36,120 bases of DNA, taken from NCBI GenBank assembly GCA_023645945.1, contig JALAIB010000069.1, forward strand, positions 1 through 36,120. Reading direction: 5' to 3'. Shown piece by piece: positions 5,665 to 29,751 of the stretch; positions within the stretch are counted from its first letter, which is position 1; every line of letters starts with the position of its first letter. The position numbers and the translations under genes were made by a program. The DNA comes from Diploschistes diacapsis (Eukaryota). A model generated the notes under the pieces. That model was given only the letters and a program-made list of their open reading frames with translations, had not been told where the DNA came from and made no database searches.

Positions 5665-7421
5665 TCAACACTCGCTCTCATATCGTTCTTGAGGTTCGAC
5701 AGTCGTATTGTGATGCTCTCTGGCAGCCTGCGCGATTCCCGCCGAGGAATCCGGCTCCGGAGTTTGTGCCATGGCCACCTCATAACTCGGCGCTGGTGGT
5801 CTCGGCGAGATCTGTCTGGGTATTGAGGCGTCCGAGTCGCTAGTGTCGGAGCGTGAATGCGGACTATGTCGCGGACTTGTGTAATCAGGTGGTGGGATAG
5901 AAAACTCGTGCTGAGGTATGAGCTCTTGCTGTGGGTGCTGCTGCTGCTGTTGTTGTTGTTGCTGCTGCTGCTGAAACGAAGATATCTGATCCGGAATTTG
6001 TCGCTGGATTCCAAGACCCATGTCGGAGCGATCGGCTCCCGCGCTGCTGCTGGTTCCTTCCCCCACATCCTCATTCGAAGCCACATGCACTAGCTGCGCT
6101 AGTGAGATATCTGTCGGTGAACGGACCGGCCCTGGGCTGGTTGGCCCGCCTGTGACGGGTGCATATCTGCTTCTTGTCCGTCCATGCCTGGGCTCATGGT
6201 TAAACGGCGCCTGCCGCTGTTGAGGCTCATTACCTCCTGCCTCCAGCAGGATGCTACCTTGTTCGCTGCCGTATGGTGGCGGTGGGGCTAGGCTACCCGT
6301 CATTGGGGCAAGACCCCACTTCTTGACGATCGCTTCTATAAAGACGAATCCACTTTGACCAAAGTTGACATGCACGGTACAGGGACCGTTAGCGCCGACT
6401 GTAGGAAAGAAGTTCTGCGTCTTAAGACCATGAGCAACATCATCTAATTTCTTCCCATTGCGAGTGAAGAAGACCGTGCCTGTTCGTGGTCGATATCCTA
6501 TACCGATAACATCTCCTTGCACATATTCAGGACCGTAGGCTGTCGGCGTAAATGGCTGGTTGAAGCGACGATGACCATCCGAAGTGTAAGCTAGAGATGT
6601 TTTATGCCACCCTACTTGCGTCAGCAGGAAACTTCCTAGAGGCACATGTTCGGATTACCTGGTAACCGGAATAATGGATAAGGTTTTGTCGTCATCCCAA
6701 TGCTAATTAATGTCGTTTCAGGCTTATCGTATATTTTTGCCTCCCAATAATAGACCTCATTCTGCTTCGGGATGGGCAAGTTGCTTTGTACACTGCATTC
6801 AGAGTCGAAGAATTCGATCTCTGTCCGCGCCTCCACAAAACAGTTGGCGATCTCCAACTCCGGCTCGAACTCCCAAGCCGAAACGCCCTTCTCTTGTATG
6901 GCGAGGAACTGCGACAGCGATATATCGGTCTGAAACGACTCGGGAGGATTTGCTTGTATAAATGCTGTAGCGAAATATCAGTATATCAATTTCGTTCCAA
7001 TGCTTCCGCCCTAAAAAAGTATGTGGAACTACATACCCTTGGCGCGTTGATATTCAGCCCGCTGCATATCATCCATCGTTTCCATCGCTTCCGCCTCTTC
7101 TCGCAACAATGCTTGTTCGTCATCATACTGACCCGGCCTTCCCATGCGGTCTAAAAATATCCTGCCTCGCGTTGTATTTCGGAAGAAGTATATCAGGGCA
7201 ATAACGATGGCGATGAGTATGGCGAAGCTCGAGGCGGAGAGCATTCCGATGAGAATGCCCCTGCCGGTTGATCCATCGTCCATTTCGACGACTTCCGTCA
7301 TTCGTGACCTACCATGGTGGCCGACTGCCCTTGCTGGTATGGAGGTAATGCCTAATCGCGGTGTCGCATGAGGCTGATGTAATGACGTGGAGAAGCTTGA
7401 CGATGCTGCCATGATGAACAT
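5665..7421 (-). CDS. SSH4: SSH4/EAR1-type single-pass SPRY-domain Rsp5 (Nedd4) adaptor, 3 exons
   Basis: Exons 7421(or 7412)-7037, 6964-6659, 6611-5665. N-terminal TM helix (ILIGMLSASSFAILIAIVIALIYFF), then IQEKGVSAWEFEP, EVYYWEAKIYDKP, KPYPLFRLPGWHKTSLAYTSDG, GDVIGIGYRPRTGTVFFTRNGKKL and PPxY motifs (PPPPY, PPDY). Confidence 0.9.
5938..5973 (-). repeat. Coding trinucleotide repeat (CAG)4(CAA)4(CAG)4 encoding Q12 in SSH4
   Basis: Plus strand reads (CTG)4(TTG)4(CTG)4. Confidence 0.9.
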
Positions 7422-8249
7422 TATCTTGATGAACGCGGAGACATTTGTGTGTAAAGTAATCTCAGATAAAGGATCTTACAGAGCAAACAGTAAGCCGGTA
7501 GAGGACCAATAACTTGTGGTGAGGATGTGGTGGGAATGCGTTGACCTGGCTGGCGGATATGTAGTGATGATTCCTGTGGAGAGAGCTTGGCAACGAGCCC
7601 TGTGAGGATGCAGTGGAAGCTAATAATAATAGTAGGGCGGCGACTGGCCGAGTGCTGGTGGATCTCTGTGACTAAGCCGGATTGGGTATATTCTAACTCC
7701 AATGTTTTATATTGCTATCAAAGCAATATTCAAATCGGCACTGACTTTTTCTGATCAAGTAGCGAGGTTGATATTCCTTAAAGTCCTTCGGGAAAGCCTC
7801 GCTATGTCATATGCTTTGATATCCGTGAACATGCTACAGGCTTGCGTCCATGTGCATTGCCATGCACCAGAGAAACTATTTACGTGGTTCTTCGCGCATA
7901 GCACCTTATAAGTATCTATCGAATTACCGTCTTCATTCAAACCGGTGGAGCCCCCTCGATGGTTTCCTCATGTGCGAAGCGCTACTTTATTTCCCCCCTT
8001 TTCTTACCTCAATTGCTGTCTACATCATTACGAATTTCTTGACCATAGTTCTTTACTGCCTATTGCTATCTGATTTCTATTTGCGTTCAGTGACAGGGCT
8101 AAAGGGAATAGAGTTGATGAGCTACAGGCAGAGGATACCAATATCAATCATTCCGAGGGAAGCGCACATGCGCCGGAAGCTCATGAGAGTACCAATGCAC
8201 CACGGTATCATCTGTTGCCAGATGGTCCATAGGCGCGTGTTAGTAAAGC

Positions 8250-13939: not shown

Positions 13940-16401
13940 ATGTTTCCTGCGCTTACGCTGGCCGTTCTAACCTTTTGTGTTTTGCAAGCTATTGCTCAAT
14001 TCCCGCCCGAGCCTCAAGGCGTGACGGTGTTGAAGTCCAAATTCCATGAAGGAATTCACATCTCTTACAAAGAAGTAATATGGTCATCTTCTACTGCATT
14101 TCCGTGCTTCTGAGCCTTTCTTATATGAGGTGAAAGATGATGGAGACCTCGACACCATTACTGAACAACGACTATAGCCCAAAATATGTGAAACGACACC
14201 CGGCGTCCGCTCCTACAGCGGCTATGTCCACCTCCCACCCAACGCCCTTGACGAGCCGTGGGAGAGACAGGACTATCCCATCAACACGTAAGGCGGAACC
14301 TGTATACCAAGCCTTACATTCGGCGTTAACATGGCATAGGTTCTTCTGGTTCTTCGAGTCTCGGAAGGATCCCCATCATGCGCCGCTCGTTATATGGCTT
14401 AATGGTGGGCCAGGAGGAAGCTCCTTGGTAGGCTTGTGTAACCCAAGGGAAAATACCATTGAAGCATGGAGTTTTTGACTTTGCTGTAGCTGGGAGCGCT
14501 CAACGAGAACGGGCCCTGCTTCGTGGGCGCGGATTCAAACAGTACATACCTCAATCCTTGGTCTTGGTATATGGCTAGGCAGCTTCTACAGCCATTGTCC
14601 ATACTAAACTCGCTTAGGAACAATGAAGTGAACGTTCTGTATATCGACGAGCCAGTCCAGACCGGCTTCTCCTATGACATCCTCACAAATATCACCCTGA
14701 ACACGCTTGCTGGTGAGCTCGGACACGCTGCTAAGCCAGTAGACTTTTCAGATGGCATTGTGCCCGAACAGAACACCACCTTCTTTGTTGGGACGCATGG
14801 TACTCAGAATGTCACCCATACCGCCAACACTACGATGCATGCTGCTGTAGCTTTTTGGCACTTTGCGCAGACGGTAACAGCTGCTTCCCCTTTCCACACG
14901 AAGCACTCCGCTGACCATTGTTAGTGGTTTGAAGAGTAATTTTGATCCCCATCCCACTTTGCTGTAAGCTAAGACCGTAGATTTCCCGCATATAAGCCGT
15001 ACGACGAGAAGATCAGCCTCTTCGCCGAGTCATACGGCGGCAAATACGGACCTGCCTTCACCAGCTACTTTATCCAACAGAACGAACTTATCGCCAACGG
15101 GACGCTGAAAGGACCTGGGGTGCATTACCTGCACATGGACACATTGGGCATTGTCAACGGTAAGGAAACACTAAGACCCCACTTTACCAAAGCCTTTGCT
15201 CAGCTTCCTACTTCCAGGCTGCATCGACGACCTGTACCAACACGCCGCCTACACCGAATTCACATACAACAACACCTACTCCATCCAGGCCATCAACTCC
15301 ACAGAATACGTCTACCAACTCCACGAGCTGTACCGCTCAGGTGGTGTCCTCGATCAGATCCAGCTCTGCCAAGTCGCCGCCCGGACCCTCGACCCAAATG
15401 AACACGGCGATATTGAAAAGGTTAACGCTCTTTGCTATGCGGCCGGCTATGCTGGCTTCAAGCTCAATTTCGAATCGTACACCCACGATGGGGCCTTTGG
15501 CGAGTGCGACATCACGCACCCTGGCGCGGACGCCTTTCCGACAAACTATTGGACAGGGTTTCTGAATCAGCAGTGGGTGCAGAAGGCGCTTGGGGTGCCG
15601 GTGAATCATTCGAGCGAGGCGGAAATTGTGAGTATGGCTTTTGGAATCACGGGAGATTTTACCAAGGGTGGGCTGGTGGAGGATATCGGGTATGTGCTGG
15701 ACAGGGGGGTGAAGGTTGCGCTGATGTACGGGGACCGGGACTGGTATGTCGAGCCTTACTTATCAGGGATGGTTAATGCTATAATCGAATAGGATCTGTA
15801 ACTGGGTACACTCTACTCCGACCCCAATGCCGTTCTTCCTTTGCCTCAACTGACTTCCATCCAGATCGGCGGTGAAAATGCCTCCCTCCACATCCCCTAC
15901 TCCGACGCCCCCTCCTTCCGCAGCGCAGGTTACGCCCCCATCTCTCTCTCCCCCGCCCACCTCCACAGCGGCGGCCAGGTCCGGCAGCACGGCAACCTCT
16001 CCTTCTCCCGCGTCTACCAGGCCGGGCACATGGTGCCCGCGTACCAGCCCGAAGTCTCCTACCAGATCTTCACGCGAGCGCTGTTCAATAGAGACATCGC
16101 CACCGGCACGATTGATTTGCAGAAGACGGGCTGGAACTATTCGACGGCGGGCCCGGATTCGACGTGGAGAGTGCTCAACGACGTCCTTCCGGCGCCGGAG
16201 CCGGTGTGTTATGTGCTGGAGCCGAGCTCATGTAGCAACGAAGTGTGGCGGGCGGTGAAAGAGAATAGGGTTGTGGTGAGGGATTGGGTCGTTGTTGAGG
16301 TTTTGGAGGAGAGTCGTCAAGAAGAGCGAAAGAAGCCTGGAAACATTGGCTTTGGTGCTGGTGGGCAAGTTGTGCTAGGAGGTGGAAAACTTGACCTGTA
16401 A
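13940..16401 (+). CDS. Secreted serine carboxypeptidase (family S10, carboxypeptidase S1-like), 10 exons
   Basis: Exons 13940-14074, 14178-14287, 14340-14427, 14490-14566, 14618-14873, 14925-14935, 14981-15159, 15218-15743, 15793-15805, 15865-16401. Signal peptide [19 protein letters not shown], then [30 protein letters not shown] and catalytic triad motifs AESYGG, YGDRDWICNW, QAGHMVP. Confidence 0.93.
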
Positions 16402-17007: not shown

Positions 17008-17691
17008 TCACCACGACGACAGAGCAGCCAGTACCTTCCTCGCCTCCTCAACAGCTCTGCCGTCGCTGAGAATGGCAGCTATCAAAGCCGAGTCTATCAA
17101 GGGGAACTCCGCTTGCAGCACATGCTGACTGTCATACGCATGTTCCGACGCCGACAAAGCTGAATCGTCCACGCCGTCCTCCGCCTTGAGCATTGACGGG
17201 GTTGATTCTTCTTTACCTCGGCCTCCACGAGTCGGGGCGAAAGTAACATAATCCCCCAAACTCCTCGACTCCGCCGGCAAAGGTGAAACCGAATGTCCCG
17301 GATAGCCATCATCAGCGTACGCAACAAGCCCACCACGTCCGCCGCCACGCCTTCCATACCTTCCGCGCTGCCCTCGTCCTGAAGAAATTGGACGCTCACT
17401 CTCGCGCAAATGTTCAGAAGGAGAAGCCGAAGCCCAAGGTAGATACACAGGAGAAGCTTCCTCTGAAGATACGGAGCTGGTACCAGTTGCTGTGTCTGGG
17501 GTGGACGATAGTGACTGGACCCGTCCGATCTGGCCGTCCTGTAACCGGACCTTGATTCCATGCGGGTGGTCACCGCGGGTGAGTATGTCGGCGATGCGGC
17601 CGGCGGTCAGTCTGCCGGAGCGTTGGTCCGCTTTCAGAATGATGTTTACGCGGGTACCGGCGCACAGGGCGGATGCTACGGGGACGGGCAT
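17008..17691 (-). CDS. YwbE/DUF2196-domain protein with RGG-rich linker and C-terminal CUE-like domain
   Basis: Intronless 227-aa ORF. VNIILKADQRSGRLTAGRIADILTRGDHPHGIKVRLQDGQIGRVQ is the YwbE signature. Linker GRGQRGRYGRRGGGRGG. C-terminal LQAEFPLIDSALIAAILSD...VEEARKVLAAL fits the CUE pattern (FP motif then three short helices). Confidence 0.82.
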   Translation of the reverse strand: MPVPVASALCAGTRVNIILKADQRSGRLTAGRIADILTRGDHPHGIKVRLQDGQIGRVQSLSSTPDTATGTSSVSSEEASPVYLPWASASPSEHLRESERPISSGRGQRGRYGRRGGGRGGLVAYADDGYPGHSVSPLPAESRSLGDYVTFAPTRGGRGKEESTPSMLKAEDGVDDSALSASEHAYDSQHVLQAEFPLIDSALIAAILSDGRAVEEARKVLAALSSW

Positions 17692-18046: not shown

Positions 18047-19600
18047 ATGCTCGACCAGCTTCCATGGCCGCCTGAGACCAACGACGAGCAGCTCGCGGCT
18101 TTAGTGCAGCATATTCACGACTGGCAAATCACCCACAGCTCCCTACTCAAGCTTATCTGGACAGAGCAAAAGCACACCGTTCTTGCCCAGCCTATCGGTG
18201 TCTCCTTGTGGCCGACGCTCTTTCCCAAAGCCTCTTTCGAGCAAGCCTTGCGCCTACAGACAGACTTCAACGAGCTCTACACCGCCGCAGCCTGCGATGA
18301 AGAATGGCTCTACCAAACGCTAAAGCCGCTGATGACAGCGGGTAGCCTGACCTCGAAGCTATGGAGCATCCACGAGAAAGTCAAGGAGGAAGGCTACGTA
18401 CAGCAGACCTCTCTCGGCATATTCCGATCCGACTACATGCTCCACGCCGTCCCAAATCCAGGAAGCAGACCCTCGCTCAAGCAGGTCGAATTCAACACCT
18501 TCTCCTGCGCCGGAGCCTGTCACTCCAGCCAGATCTCCTCCCTCCACCGCCATCTGCAGAGAATAGGCGCCTATCCAACCTCCATTTCTCCACCCAACAG
18601 CACAATCCCAAACCCCATCACCCTCCCGGCCAGCGACAACACCTCCTCCCTCGCCTCCGCCCTAGCAAAAGCACACCGCGCCTACGGCCCGCCCAAAAGC
18701 CGCTCCGCCCCGCAAACCGGCATCCTCATGCTCGTCCAGCCGTGCAACGTAAACATCTGCGATGAGCGGCCCCTCGAATACGCGCTCTGGGACCGCGGCA
18801 TCCCCACCTACCGCGCCACGTTCCCGGACGACGTCACATCTCACACCTCCTCGACCTCGACGCGGGAACTATTGTACCGCCCCCCGACCCGCACCCGGCA
18901 CCACCTGCCGCCGCTGGAGATCTCGGTCGCGTACCTGCGCGCGGGCTACGACGAGGCCGAGTACGCGACGGACCAGGGCGTCGCCGCGAGATACCGGCTC
19001 GAGCGGTCGCGCGCGATCAAGTGCCCGTCGCTGCTGGCGCACCTGACGACGCTGAAGAAGGTGCAGCAGGTGCTGGCGCGGCCGGGGGTGCTGGAGCGCT
19101 TTCTGTCGGCGGAGAAGGCAGGGAGGGTGCGGGAGACGTTCATGCCGATGTATCCGCTCGATAGGTCGGAGGCTGGGATGGAGGGGAGAACGCTTGCTTT
19201 TGATTGGAAGATGTCGGGGAGCCATGTGCTCAAGCCATCGCTGGAGGGAGGGGGGCATAATGTTTATGGGAAGGAGATTCCGGAGTTTTTGGAACAGTTG
19301 CCGACGGACATGTTCGGCGCGTATGTCTTGATGGAAACTATAAGGCCGCCGCCTTTGCGGAACGTGCTGATGTCGCCGAGGGGCGTGCATGAGGGGCCAG
19401 TGATTAGCGAGCTCGGTGTTCTTGGTCTGTGCTTGTGGAATCACCAGGGCGATAATGGCAAGCAAGAGGTTAATTGTGACCTTCTGATGAATGAGCAAGC
19501 AGGCTTCACTTTCAAGACCAAAGCGAGTGAGGTTGACGAGATGAGCGTGGTGAAGGGCTATGGATGCTTCGATAGCCCATGCTTGATTGATGACGAATAA
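18047..19600 (+). CDS. Eukaryotic glutathione synthetase-like ATP-grasp ligase (divergent paralogue)
   Basis: Intronless 517-aa ORF with GSS landmarks LGIFRSDYMLH, LKQVEFNT, YLRAGY, LERSRAIKCPS, KKVQQVL, VLKPxxEGGGxNVYG, YVLMETIRPP, ISELG and GxGCFDSP. Substrate-binding loops deviate from canonical Gsh2, so no symbol is given. Confidence 0.88.
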   Translation: MLDQLPWPPETNDEQLAALVQHIHDWQITHSSLLKLIWTEQKHTVLAQPIGVSLWPTLFPKASFEQALRLQTDFNELYTAAACDEEWLYQTLKPLMTAGSLTSKLWSIHEKVKEEGYVQQTSLGIFRSDYMLHAVPNPGSRPSLKQVEFNTFSCAGACHSSQISSLHRHLQRIGAYPTSISPPNSTIPNPITLPASDNTSSLASALAKAHRAYGPPKSRSAPQTGILMLVQPCNVNICDERPLEYALWDRGIPTYRATFPDDVTSHTSSTSTRELLYRPPTRTRHHLPPLEISVAYLRAGYDEAEYATDQGVAARYRLERSRAIKCPSLLAHLTTLKKVQQVLARPGVLERFLSAEKAGRVRETFMPMYPLDRSEAGMEGRTLAFDWKMSGSHVLKPSLEGGGHNVYGKEIPEFLEQLPTDMFGAYVLMETIRPPPLRNVLMSPRGVHEGPVISELGVLGLCLWNHQGDNGKQEVNCDLLMNEQAGFTFKTKASEVDEMSVVKGYGCFDSPCLIDDE

Positions 19601-19664: not shown

Positions 19665-21482
19665 TCAGCTTGCATCATCATATTCGCCAACCTCACGATC
19701 CTCAAATTCCATGAAACCGCTCTCATTCCCTGTGATGTGCTGCCAAGCCCTGCGGACTTCTCGCAGCACGCTGTCGTTAAATGCAAGATCAGTACTGGGG
19801 TTTGACAAGAGGACGGTCTTGTCCGGTGGCTCAGAGGCTGGGTCTTCTGAATAGGATGACTCTTCATTCGTCCATGCTTTTTGGGAATAGAAGAGACTCC
19901 AAAGCATATCGATCTCCTCACCGTCCTTGGCAGATGTACTCAACAATGTCGCCATAGCCATCTCCAACCATTGCTTTCCCTCATCAGCGACCGCTCGAAT
20001 GCTTGCATATAGAATGCCTAATATACACGTCAGCAAGGTACTCCAGCATCTTCCTGATCGCTTGAGAAACAGAAAACGCATTGTCAGAATGTCAGAGGTA
20101 ATTATCCCCAAAGAAAGTTCGGATAATGTAGATAAGTATTCATATTTCACAATCATCATTTGCGTTGCTGAAAAAAGGGTGCTTAACTTACTTTGACCAG
20201 CCGGGCATTCTCCCGTTTCACTGCTGTGAACCATGATGTATACAGGCGTAGAGTTCATCGAGCCACCCTGCTGTAACGATGAAGGTGGGAACACAACGAC
20301 TGTACAAGCCGAAGGAGGAGCGCCGTCGGCAATTGGAGGAAACAAAATAGCTAAATCAGAGGCTACAATCGATATAGACCGTGTGAAAAGACCCGTTTCT
20401 GGTACACTTTCTGTGCTTGACTGCAGATCTTCTCTTAAGCCTGTTTTCCACTTTGTCTTGACTCGCTCAGCGTTTCCAAGCATGAGCCGATAGTAATCAT
20501 CAGAGTTGCTAGGAACGCCTTGCACTCCCTTGCCGAGCATATAGACACCACCGCCAACTGCACATGCCCGGCATCCAACCTGTGCAATTTCAGCTAGGCC
20601 GCCCCATTTAGGAACAACAGCTCCGAAGCCTGGCCCAAAAGTTCCTATGGAAGACAAATGTCTCAATATTCGCGGCAGAGCAAACGATGTTTTAGTCTGT
20701 GCCGCAGGAGAAGGAGACAACGTGAGAGCTTGTATGATTGGCTGTAGCTGTAGTGGTATATTGTATTGCTGGGAGAGGAAGTTTTCGAACGAACTATCTC
20801 CAAACTCTTCAATGGCCTGCGAGAAAGCTTCGGGATCTGTGATGAATTTCAAGAACCTCATCAACAATCTCTTAGATTTCAGATCTATTGACTTGTCGGC
20901 GAAGACGTCTTCGCGACTGCTTGGAATTTTCCTGAGGCTGCCATTGCCGCCATCTGAGCGCTGTTCGTAGATCCACCATGCCCCTACTGCTAGGAATTCC
21001 AACTGTCGATAAACCTTGGAAGATACTAGGGTCGGTAGCAAAGCCGATTTAGAGTAGATGATCTGCGGGGACAGAGCAAGGCTGTATGCTCTCGAGAACC
21101 CTAATGTAGAGCCCTCAAAAATGCTGTCTCCCGTTTGTGACTTGGACACAATGTGGGCATCGAAGAACTCCGATGACCCTAATTCAAATGAGCCCGAGTT
21201 GATGCTATAGTTGAACCGAGCGCACCTCTGCTTACGCTCTTCACCCATTCTTCAGCATCTTGAAGACTGAGCGCCGCCTCTGCGCCGCCATAGTAGTTGT
21301 TTCGATCAACATGGAGAATCTTCTTGTCCGATCGGGATAAAGCTCTTGTGTAAGCGCCTGGTCAGTCAGAAAGGAAGTAGACCGTGTAGACGATAAGTTA
21401 CTTACAGTGCTAGTAACGACTGTGCGAGCCCCGTACCTGCGATGACAAGGTCAAAGTTAGTCTCGCTGATGGAGTCCATCAT
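19665..21482 (-). CDS. MRS6: Rab escort protein / Rab geranylgeranyltransferase component A (GDI/REP family), 4 exons
   Basis: Exons 21482(or 21479)-21406, 21344-21226, 21178-20192, 20017-19665. FDLVIAGTGLAQSLLALALSRSDKKILHVDRNNYYGG, LVSSKVYRQLEFLAVG, IPSSREDVF, WGGLAEIAQVGCRACAVGGGVYML, HSSETGECPAGQ and an acidic C-terminus. Confidence 0.92.
20075..20166 (-). ncRNA. snR62: Intronic box C/D snoRNA, snR62/SNORD34 (U34) orthologue
   Basis: Inside MRS6 intron 20191-20018. Box C ATGATGA 20159-20153, D' CCGA 20122-20119, box D CTGA 20087-20084 (a second CTGA at 20095-20092), terminal stem AACGCA/TGCGTT. The 14-nt guide CTTATCTACATTAT before D' is complementary to LSU rRNA AUAAUGUAGAUAAG as recalled. 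Confidence 0.85.
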
Positions 21483-24260: not shown

Positions 24261-25269
24261 ATGGCCTCAACTATGAACCAAGACGTTAAGCTTACGCTGC
24301 ATTGGTATGTGGGGTTCTGATTACCCAGCTCATGGGCGGCACCGACGAGCATGTCGCAACGGCGCACATAGATCCCAACTTGATTCATAGAAATCCCATC
24401 CTATTAAAAAACGGCCTTGGAACGCTACTAATTCGCTGCACCATCTAGGCTGAGCGAGTCTCGCTCCCACAGAGTCCTTTGGTTGCTGGAGGAACTCAAT
24501 GTTAACTACGATGTAAAAATCTACAAGCGCATGGATAACAAGCTTGCTCCTCCAGAATTGGAAAAAGTACATCCTCTAGGAAAATCACCAGTCATTACCA
24601 TACAGAAAAATGGCCAGTCAGAGCCCCTTGTTATAGCCGAATCTGCGCTCATCATCGAGTACCTCATCGAGCATTTTGGACCTCAGTACATTCCAAACCG
24701 CTACAAGGACGGACAAGATGGCCAGCCATGTGGTGAAACTGAAGCGTATATGCGTTATAGATGGTAAGTACCGCACCAAAGATAGCTTTGGTCAAGCTAA
24801 CCTTCCAGGTACATGCACTTTGCCGAAGGCTCAATGATGTTCTTCTTAGTAACCAAACTCATCCCAGACGGTATGCACACGACTTGTTCTCTCAGCGCAG
24901 CTAACTTACGATGGTCAAGGTATTCGAAGCCAAGCCCCGTTCTTTGTGAGGTTCATCACGAACACAATCGCCAGCAAAATCGAGAACTTCGTCAATCCCA
25001 ACATCAAGAAGCAGCTGGCTCTACTCGAGTCCCAAGCGGCCTCGGCTCCAGATGGTGGGCCCTGGCTGTGCGGTTCTCACTTGTCCGGCGCCGACTTTAT
25101 CATGAGCTTCCCGCTGCAAGGTGTTAAGCATGGCAAACTGATCAACGAGAAGGACCATCCAAAGCTAATGGCCTTTGTCGATAGGGTCGAGGCTACCGAG
25201 TCATACAAGAGGGCTTCGCAGAAGATTGTCGAGATAGATGGCAAATTCGATGGTCTGTTCTCTAACTAA
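24261..25269 (+). CDS. Glutathione S-transferase, GTT1-like, 4 exons
   Basis: Exons 24261-24304 (alternative in-frame ATGs at 24246 and 24273), 24449-24763, 24809-24870, 24920-25269. LHWLSESRSHRVLWLLEEL, LAPPELEKVHPLGKSPVI, AESALIIEYL, MHFAEGSMM and WLCGSHLSGADFIMSFPL. Confidence 0.92.
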
Positions 25270-28614: not shown

Positions 28615-29751
28615 ATGGGATCGAAAGACGAAATCGTCTTCACGGTCTTCAAGGGCTCCAAATCTGGCGACATCGTCCAGTCGAGAACCACCCACAAGCC
28701 CTTGACCGGCGACCAGGTCCTCGTTTCCATTACCGCCTCCGGCCTCTGCGGCACAGACCTCCACTATCGTCAGGTCGACGTGAGCCCCTCTCTAGCCCTC
28801 TCTATTCCTTTGTTCATACTTGCTAACTAGCCCCGCAGATGGTCCTCGGCCACGAAGGCATTGGAACCGTTACCGCTACAGGCCCCGGCGTCACCAAGCT
28901 CAAAAAGGGTGACCGCGTGGGCTGGGGCTACGAGCACAACTCCTGCGGACGGTGCCAGCAATGTCTCCAGGGAACCGAAACCTACTGCCCAGAGCGCGCC
29001 ATGTACGGTTACGCGGACCTGGACCAGGGCAGCTTCGCGTACGGCGCCGTCTGGCGCGAGGCTTTTCTTTTCAAAATCCCGAACGGGCTCACCGACGAAG
29101 AGGCCGCGCCACTCATGTGCGGCGGCGCGACGGTCTTCAATGCGCTGCACATGTACGGCGCACGGCCAACGGACAGGGTCGGCATCGTCGGTGTCGGTGG
29201 GCTGGGGCACTTGGCCATCCAGGTAAGCTCGACATCTCAGTCGGTGTGCGTACCAACCTTACGATGGCTAGTTCGCCGCCAAAATGGGCTGCGAGACGGT
29301 CGTCTTCTCCGGCACCGACAGCAAAAAATCCGAAGCCCTCTCGCTCGGCGCCACCGAGTTCCACACCACCAAGGACGTCAAAAAACTCGTACTTAGCAGC
29401 GGCCTTATCGATACCCTCCTCGTCACCACCTCCGCCTCGCCGGATTGGAGCCTCTATGTCCCCATCCTCAGCCCCGGTGCCAAGATCTTTCCATTGAATG
29501 TCGACGAGGGTGATTTCAAGTTTCCGCACATGGCGCTGTTGGGGGGCGGAATCACGGTGCAGGGCAGCTTAGTGGCGCCGAGGCATGTGCATGCACGCAT
29601 GCTGACATTCGCGGCACAGCATGGAATCAAGCCGATGGTGAATATATTCAAGATGGATAGGGAGGGGATCGAGAAGGCGATGAGTAGGTTAGATGAGGGC
29701 AAGATGAGATATCGTGGGGTGCTGGTGGCACCGAAGGAGAGCAAGCTTTAA
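28615..29751 (+). CDS. Zinc-dependent medium-chain alcohol dehydrogenase (cinnamyl-ADH-like, probably NADP-dependent), 3 exons
   Basis: Exons 28615-28779, 28839-29222, 29272-29751. GLCGTDLH, GHEGIG, structural zinc site CGRCQQCLQGTETYC, APLMCGGATV, GVGGLGHL, FSGTDSKK and GKMRYRGVL. Confidence 0.93.

Follow-up and report, generated by a model that had tools for sequence, protein, structure and literature searches.

Two plant enzymes, homoglutathione synthetase (hGS, 3KAL) and rice OsGS2, are duplicates of glutathione synthetase (GSS) in which the acceptor has been altered. In hGS two adjacent alanines of the A-loop are replaced by Leu-Pro (PMC5919673), and OsGS2 yields both hydroxymethyl-glutathione and glutathione (PMC6508825). 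The glutamate pocket of GSS is called conserved in plants, fungi and animals in the available text of PMC5919673, where the plant variants alter the terminal amino acid only. The nematode GS-like effectors described there keep the ATP site and lack canonical activity, and Gpa-GSS5, which has none of the six canonical glutamate-pocket residues, still forms glutathione, slowly and with a preference for glycine (23 units; potato GSS, 7532). Contacts in the canonical active site are known in detail: the gamma-glutamyl group is contacted by R267, S151, E214 and N216, and the glycyl carboxylate is bound by R450 and the amides of V461/A462, preceded by two near-invariant glycines (PMC2845819, available text); the glutamyl alpha-carboxyl is held by R267, and Q220 touches both the substrate and E214, with which it forms a hydrogen bond in human GSS (PMC6297838, available text). 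Fungal ATP-grasp amide ligases of broadly GSS-like fold, Cp1B and AnkG, also exist (PMC12568646, available text).

The stretch of Diploschistes diacapsis DNA analysed here (the window, 36,120 nucleotides) carries a GSS paralogue (Table 1) that can be set against each of these systems. With eukaryotic GSS (yeast Gsh2, 1M0T/1M0W; human, 2HGS; PF03917+PF03199, TIGR01986) it shares fold, length, core residues and R267/N216/Q211. It differs in being kept beside a canonical GSH2 and in a set of substitutions fixed in its clade: S151A, F152G, L155H, E214N, Q220E, Q366S, R367L, R450K, G459M, G460S, A462V and A463K (human numbering). The two A-loop alanines changed in hGS are sites altered in the window protein too, with Val-Lys instead of Leu-Pro, so that it does not have the hGS pocket; moreover, the donor of hGS and OsGS2 stays gamma-Glu-Cys, whereas the donor pocket of the window protein is also altered. 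An intact ATP site combined with an altered donor pocket, from which new substrates were inferred, has likewise been described for the cyst-nematode proteins Gpa-GSS22 and Gpa-GSS30. However, according to the available description, the nematode effectors form an expanded, hypervariable set of secreted proteins (24 proteins with 21 pocket compositions) and have lost R267/N216, both of which are kept in the single fixed alternative pocket of the variant clade. Judged by sequence, the window gene represents a genuine, ancient GSS paralogue that occurs in many filamentous ascomycetes, its active site fixed in a single alternative form. It is, on balance, predicted to be an active ligase whose preferred substrate pair is other than gamma-Glu-Cys and glycine.

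A GSS-family protein and a separate canonical GSH2

The window gene is a single exon with no internal stop. Its protein matches GSH_synth_ATP (1e-117) and GSH_synthase (1e-28) in Pfam and scores above the cut-off of the TIGR01986 eukaryotic GSS equivalog (371.8 against 329.8 bits), for which two Aspergillus relatives gave 334.5 and 317.6. An AlphaFold2 model built on a 65-sequence alignment (pLDDT 92.4, pTM 0.92) matched human GSS (Z 45.3; 464 residues at rmsd 2.0), with soybean hGS (Z 45.0) and yeast Gsh2 (Z 44.6) scoring level with it. GSS structures as a group gave Z 38-45, and the top ESM Atlas matches were glutathione-synthetase clusters only. The window protein is thus a member of the eukaryotic GSS structural family by domains, fold and core residues. 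When the protein was aligned with human GSS (2HGS), each of the 11 core residues considered (R125, D127, E144, N146, K305, K364, E368, G369, G370, E425 and K452) was found, in agreement with the intact ATP site proposed in the first-pass annotation of this DNA. Every motif and human-numbered residue listed there maps correctly, and its positions 18488, 18737, 19511 and 19538-19564 are exact.

Protein and family searches recovered exactly two GSS loci in the assembly. The second, on contig C158, is the separate canonical GSH2 whose existence the annotation had left to be checked: its open frame of 515 aa, interrupted by three GT-AG introns (98, 48 and 47 nt), encodes canonical motifs, and its protein is identical to the window protein at 202 of 463 aligned residues (44%). 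It is this gene that is orthologous to housekeeping GSH2, and it falls apart from the variant clade; the window gene is neither that orthologue nor the sole GSS of the genome. Glutamate-cysteine ligase (GCL) and the mitochondrial S17 gene of the window each had one match in the assembly, which, fragmented as it is (4361 contigs), fits one fungus, and an origin of the two copies in a mixed assembly of two fungi is unsupported. Gene structure and the names of the best matches mark the window as DNA of an intron-bearing filamentous ascomycete. Recent horizontal transfer was ruled out as far as codon use can tell, the GC3 of the window gene (0.76) lying within the range of 14 window ORFs (0.49-0.83). 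Elasticomyces elasticus is also named with both GSS types (P0054 and P0382, possibly from different strains). Two GSS homologues with 37% and 28% identity to yeast Gsh2 are tabulated for Talaromyces marneffei in the available part of PMC10449922, and Z. tritici is said to possess one GSS (bioRxiv 2020.02.20.957431, available text).

The two copies also differ in gene structure. Like the window gene, most clade loci of full length match as a single, intron-free block, in contrast to the three introns of the canonical GSH2; retroposition or intron loss would fit this pattern. Clade loci matching in pieces are L019/L020, L028, L029, L038-L041, L056 and L059.

One alternative active site fixed across a fungal clade

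A first search gave 1178 matches among 8000 scored candidates, the best 120 of which were used. In these, G156, N234, E240 and K503 of the window protein were each present in 119/119 non-self matches, and the substitutions are therefore not due to chance. The same shared states, together with the intact ORF, rule out private decay or a pseudogene. Named members of the clade belong to Lachnellula, Phialocephala, Mollisia, Cadophora, Aspergillus, Penicillium, Talaromyces, Rasamsonia, Mytilinidion, Lepidopterella, Rhizodiscina, Elasticomyces and Stictis, which we take to represent four classes of ascomycetes. The sole basidiomycete name among the named matches, Athelia psychrophila (P0089), possibly reflects transfer or contamination. 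Searching 50% representatives with a profile brought in deep clade members as well as canonical GSS.

Two phylogenies recovered the clade as a unit. In a FastTree analysis of 148 of 265 proteins, chosen for a length of 440-700 aa and with the first-search matches thinned, all 73 proteins with E at site 240 formed one group (support 1.0, stem 0.44). In an IQ-TREE analysis of a hand-picked set of 68 proteins, all 25 variants grouped together (SH-aLRT 100, stem 0.43), and 20 canonical sequences, mostly from named filamentous ascomycetes and including that of C158, formed a separate group (SH-aLRT 95.8), the variant clade branching among fungal GSH2 sequences. These separate groups indicate that the duplication predates the split of those lineages, and they bear out the conserved clade envisaged in the first-pass annotation.

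Purifying selection on the clade, also envisaged there, is supported by the closest 22 of 276 Nei-Gojobori pairs drawn from 23 loci and the window: dN/dS was 0.08-0.18 in 12 of the 13 pairs with measurable dS, and 0.30 in the remaining, near-identical pair, the pairs not being independent of each other. For the window gene, whose nearest relative is 57% identical at best, dN/dS was 0.33-0.34 with dS near saturation.

Residue states were counted in 415 proteins, a biased sample of cluster representatives ranked by similarity, and the variant and canonical groups were defined by site 240 (E in 211, Q in 194, neither in 10), so that the count of that site itself is circular. The new states G156, H159, N234 and K503 are as fixed as the catalytic residues (Table 1), and the combination of F152>G, L155>H, E214>N, Q220>E and A463>K is seen in 184 of the 332 rows that could be scored at each of these five positions. 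All 11 core residues are kept in 177 of the 184 variants covering these sites, the window protein included. Also kept in the variants are R267 (204/205), N216 and Q211 (196/210), whereas Y270 is relaxed (Y in 105/206, against 193/194 in canonical GSS), as are P272 and W280.

The substrate-contact substitutions listed in the first-pass annotation were all confirmed, with one correction: the human A-loop reads DGGVAAGVA, and the EGGVAAGxG used for comparison is the fungal and plant form. Changes missing from that list are L155>H, G303>T and the absence of both P272 and W280. The claim of a rewired gamma-glutamyl pocket holds in part, for E214N and Q220E; Q211, N216, R267 and Y270 are kept, four of the six residues of the canonical glutamate pocket (Q211/E214/N216/Q220/R267/Y270), and one carboxylate is retained. 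The window protein therefore has neither that canonical pocket nor the canonical acceptor site, with K490 and MSVVKG where canonical GSS has R450 and GGVAAG.

Table 1. Features of the window. Residues of the window protein are followed in brackets by their human equivalents (alignment to 2HGS), and counts are given as variant versus canonical proteins where both are available, in the 415-protein sample and with the groups described in the text.
Feature	Position	Strand	Description	Counts in clade (vs canonical)
S10 serine carboxypeptidase	14134-16401	+	In window; not recurring beside paralogue elsewhere	
DUF2196 gene	17008-17691	-	Divergent, ~355 bp upstream of window gene	
GSS paralogue, predicted ATP-grasp ligase gene	18047..19600	+	517 aa + TAA, stop codon included	
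FRSDY	18422..18436	+	Catalytic R127 (R125), D129 (D127) kept	R 198/198, D 197/198
EFNTFSCAGACH	18488..18523	+	E148 (E144), N150 (N146) kept; A155 (S151), G156 (F152), H159 (L155) changed	A 186/204 vs S 133/146; G 203/204 vs F 138/146; H 200/204 vs L 138/151
QPCNVNICDER, gamma-glutamyl pocket	18737..18769	+	Q211, N236 (N216) kept; N234 (E214), E240 (Q220) changed	N234 204/211 vs E 184/193; N236 209/211
YLRAGY, S-loop	18932..18949	+	R298 (R267), Y301 (Y270) kept in window protein	Y270 variable across clade
TLK	19049..19057	+	G303>T; T304>L; ATP-binding K337 (K305) kept	F at T304 site in most clade members
KPSLEGGGHN, G-loop	19232..19261	+	K396 (K364), E400 (E368), GGG, N373 kept; S398 (Q366), L399 (R367), H404 (N372) changed	S 183/203 vs Q 191/194; L 170/202 vs R 194/194
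ISELG	19403..19417	+	E455 (E425) kept	198/200
FKTK	19511..19522	+	K490 (R450, glycine-carboxylate contact) changed; K492 (K452) kept	K 180/203 (R 17/203) vs R 191/192
EMSVVKGYGCFD, A-loop, acceptor-specificity loop	19538..19573	+	M499/S500 (G459/G460), V502/K503 (A462/A463) changed	M 187/199 vs G 189/191; S 191/199 vs G 191/191; V 179/198 vs A 179/191; K 195/198 vs A 162/191
GDI/REP-family gene	19665-21251	-	Convergent, end 64 bp past window-gene stop codon	
Glutathione S-transferase	24432-25269	+	In window; not recurring beside paralogue elsewhere	
Zinc alcohol dehydrogenase	28827-29751	+	In window; not recurring beside paralogue elsewhere	

We found no description of the variant clade in the open-access literature; subscription papers were mostly outside this survey, and a prior report is possible. 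The available parts of PMC13338154 and bioRxiv 2026.06.09.730884 hold nothing directly on the clade. The gsh2 deletion in F. graminearum (PMC10790779, available text) is uninformative for it, as that species may or may not carry the paralogue.

Candidate substrates and the second-synthetase alternative

In its boldest form, our reading would be that an old GSS duplicate changed both its donor and its acceptor pocket, and might now join, for example, an S-substituted or non-cysteine dipeptide to an acidic amino acid. The chemistry would be that of the GSS family, in which the donor carboxylate is converted to an acyl-phosphate and then attacked by an amine. We take F152 to lie beneath the substrate thiol and E214 to sit at the substrate amine. 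The retention of R267, N216 and Q211, together with the move of the acidic residue from 214 to 220, suggests that the donor would still end in a gamma-glutamyl-type alpha-amino-acid tail. The paralogue has no recurring partner gene and there is one GCL, which points to a donor drawn from general metabolism, most simply the ordinary gamma-glutamyl pool. More tentatively, F152>G and L155>H may open up space for a second residue bulkier than free cysteine, such as an S-substituted cysteine or another amino acid, and the rebuilt A-loop with its invariant K503, together with R450K, may accommodate an acceptor with a side chain instead of glycine. K503 is not a swap for the lost R367, as it is present in all 17 members that retain the G-loop arginine (R399). 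The best guess for the acceptor would be an acidic residue, Glu or Asp, giving a tripeptide of the gamma-Glu-X-Glu/Asp type. The product is likely to be a glutathione analogue rather than glutathione; that this exact pair of substrates is the right one is a good deal less probable, and we regard it as an unlikely guess.

The main rival is a second, slow or conditional, glutathione synthetase that would make the same product with other kinetics, cooperativity or regulation, as a back-up or as a stress- or stage-specific enzyme whose swapped residues are co-adapted; we consider this rather unlikely, and it has several points in its favour. The window protein scores above the TIGR01986 cut-off and keeps four of the six glutamate-pocket residues; R450K leaves the charge unchanged, as E214N/Q220E does the net charge, and since E214 and Q220 form a hydrogen bond in human GSS, the latter pair may be a neutral charge swap. 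A single GCL makes gamma-Glu-Cys the obvious donor. The diverged nematode Clade 1 and Clade 2 enzymes still produce glutathione (PMC5919673, available text), and, as Gpa-GSS5 does so with none of the six pocket residues, pocket changes alone are no proof of new substrates; OsGS2, with its two products, counts on the same side. Against this, about a dozen sites that are near-fixed in canonical GSS hold other, equally fixed residues in the variants, among them both A-loop glycines and the specificity alanines, whereas a copy serving only as a back-up should drift or vanish and not keep new invariant states across several fungal classes.

One fixed alternative site over several fungal classes points to a conserved metabolite or reaction under the label 'glutathione synthetase', and annotations of clade members under that name would overcount glutathione genes. 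It is possible, if tentative, that many filamentous fungi, numerous Penicillium species and Aspergillus sections Flavi and Nigri among them, have an unrecognised second branch of glutathione metabolism that makes one conserved non-glutathione gamma-glutamyl tripeptide. In that case the paralogue would be the first variant of GSS for which a donor different from gamma-Glu-Cys is identified. Food-grade Aspergillus and yeast lend themselves to work on the clade, which would also be a convenient system for approaching the substrates of the nematode GS-like effectors and may supply a new amide-forming biocatalyst.

Genomic neighbourhood and deviating members

A metagenome scan gave 74 loci, of which 46 carried clade motifs, 23 were canonical and 5 were left unclassified by pattern. 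The flanks of 50 of them (the 46 and 4 of the 5 unclassified) were compared with the window. Flanking genes were shared within close lineages only, the exceptions being a generic ABC transporter match and a PhyH-type gene that L009 and L030 both have, and none was common to the window; many of the contigs being short, no recurring gene cluster emerged from the 50 loci and the window. Pfam scans of 22 + 123 flank ORFs, mainly of at least 130 aa and from 20 loci, revealed mixed housekeeping and catabolic genes, with no NRPS, PKS or GCL among the 145.

These flanks bear on another explanation, that of a stand-alone tailoring ligase of secondary metabolism which, like Cp1B (E-64, 9CJN) and AnkG (NK13650), would be fungal, of GSS-like fold and active in forming amide bonds on non-glutathione substrates, here with a non-glutamyl acid donor. 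The existence of such enzymes (PMC12568646, available text), the patchy presence of the paralogue and an IucA/IucC gene directly upstream of it in one lineage are in line with this idea. However, no neighbour other than PhyH in two loci is common across lineages, which argues against a cluster enzyme, though some species may have clusters, many contigs being short; no NRPS or PKS domain was found in the flank ORFs; and the pocket residues, with R267 and N216 kept, are uniform, unlike those of the usual diversified cluster enzymes. Cp1B is also remote from the window-protein model (Z 22.0, rmsd 3.8 over 421 residues, 12-14% identity), and is encoded in a gene cluster and without Pfam match, in contrast to the strong GSS matches of the window protein, which is not Cp1B-like. 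AnkG is reported to be ~30% identical to Cp1B and is termed an 'ATP-dependent glutathione synthetase' in one highlight (PMC11610942, available text). Taken together, a tailoring role appears very unlikely.

Two local arrangements were observed. In L059 (2603-20886; also in L038 and L039), the IucA/IucC siderophore-synthetase-like gene lies ~600 bp upstream of the paralogue on the same strand, and a 3-beta-HSD (Erg26-like), Erg28 and a short-chain reductase, presumably Erg27-like, are found within ~18 kb; these Erg-type neighbours may form a cluster of sterol C4-demethylation genes. In L009 (7523-7993) and L030 (8598-9041), the PhyH-type dioxygenases near the paralogue are 77% identical, and the two loci have nothing else in common. 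A third locus, L045, is an 8-kb contig that bears one gene part twice, in inverted orientation, at either end (83-1158 and 6858-7933); an assembly artefact is the probable cause.

The least probable explanation is a paralogue with little or no catalytic activity, whose role would be to bind nucleotide or gamma-glutamyl peptides or to regulate GSH2. Nematode GS-like effectors that keep the ATP site without canonical activity (PMC5919673, available text) and a few deviating clade members offer precedents, but against it stand the 177 of 184 members, the window protein among them, that keep all 11 core residues, the catalytic arginine found without exception and the G-loop glycines. Core residues deviate in 7 of 184 members and in the loci L021 (268-1785) and L024 (1466-2986), these two having lost the equivalent of E144 and the G-loop consensus; P0137 is similar. 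The frames of L021 and L024 are open and the pair, one of the twelve above, has a dN/dS of 0.17, so that a low dN/dS is no proof of catalysis; the two may represent a pseudo-enzyme sub-lineage.
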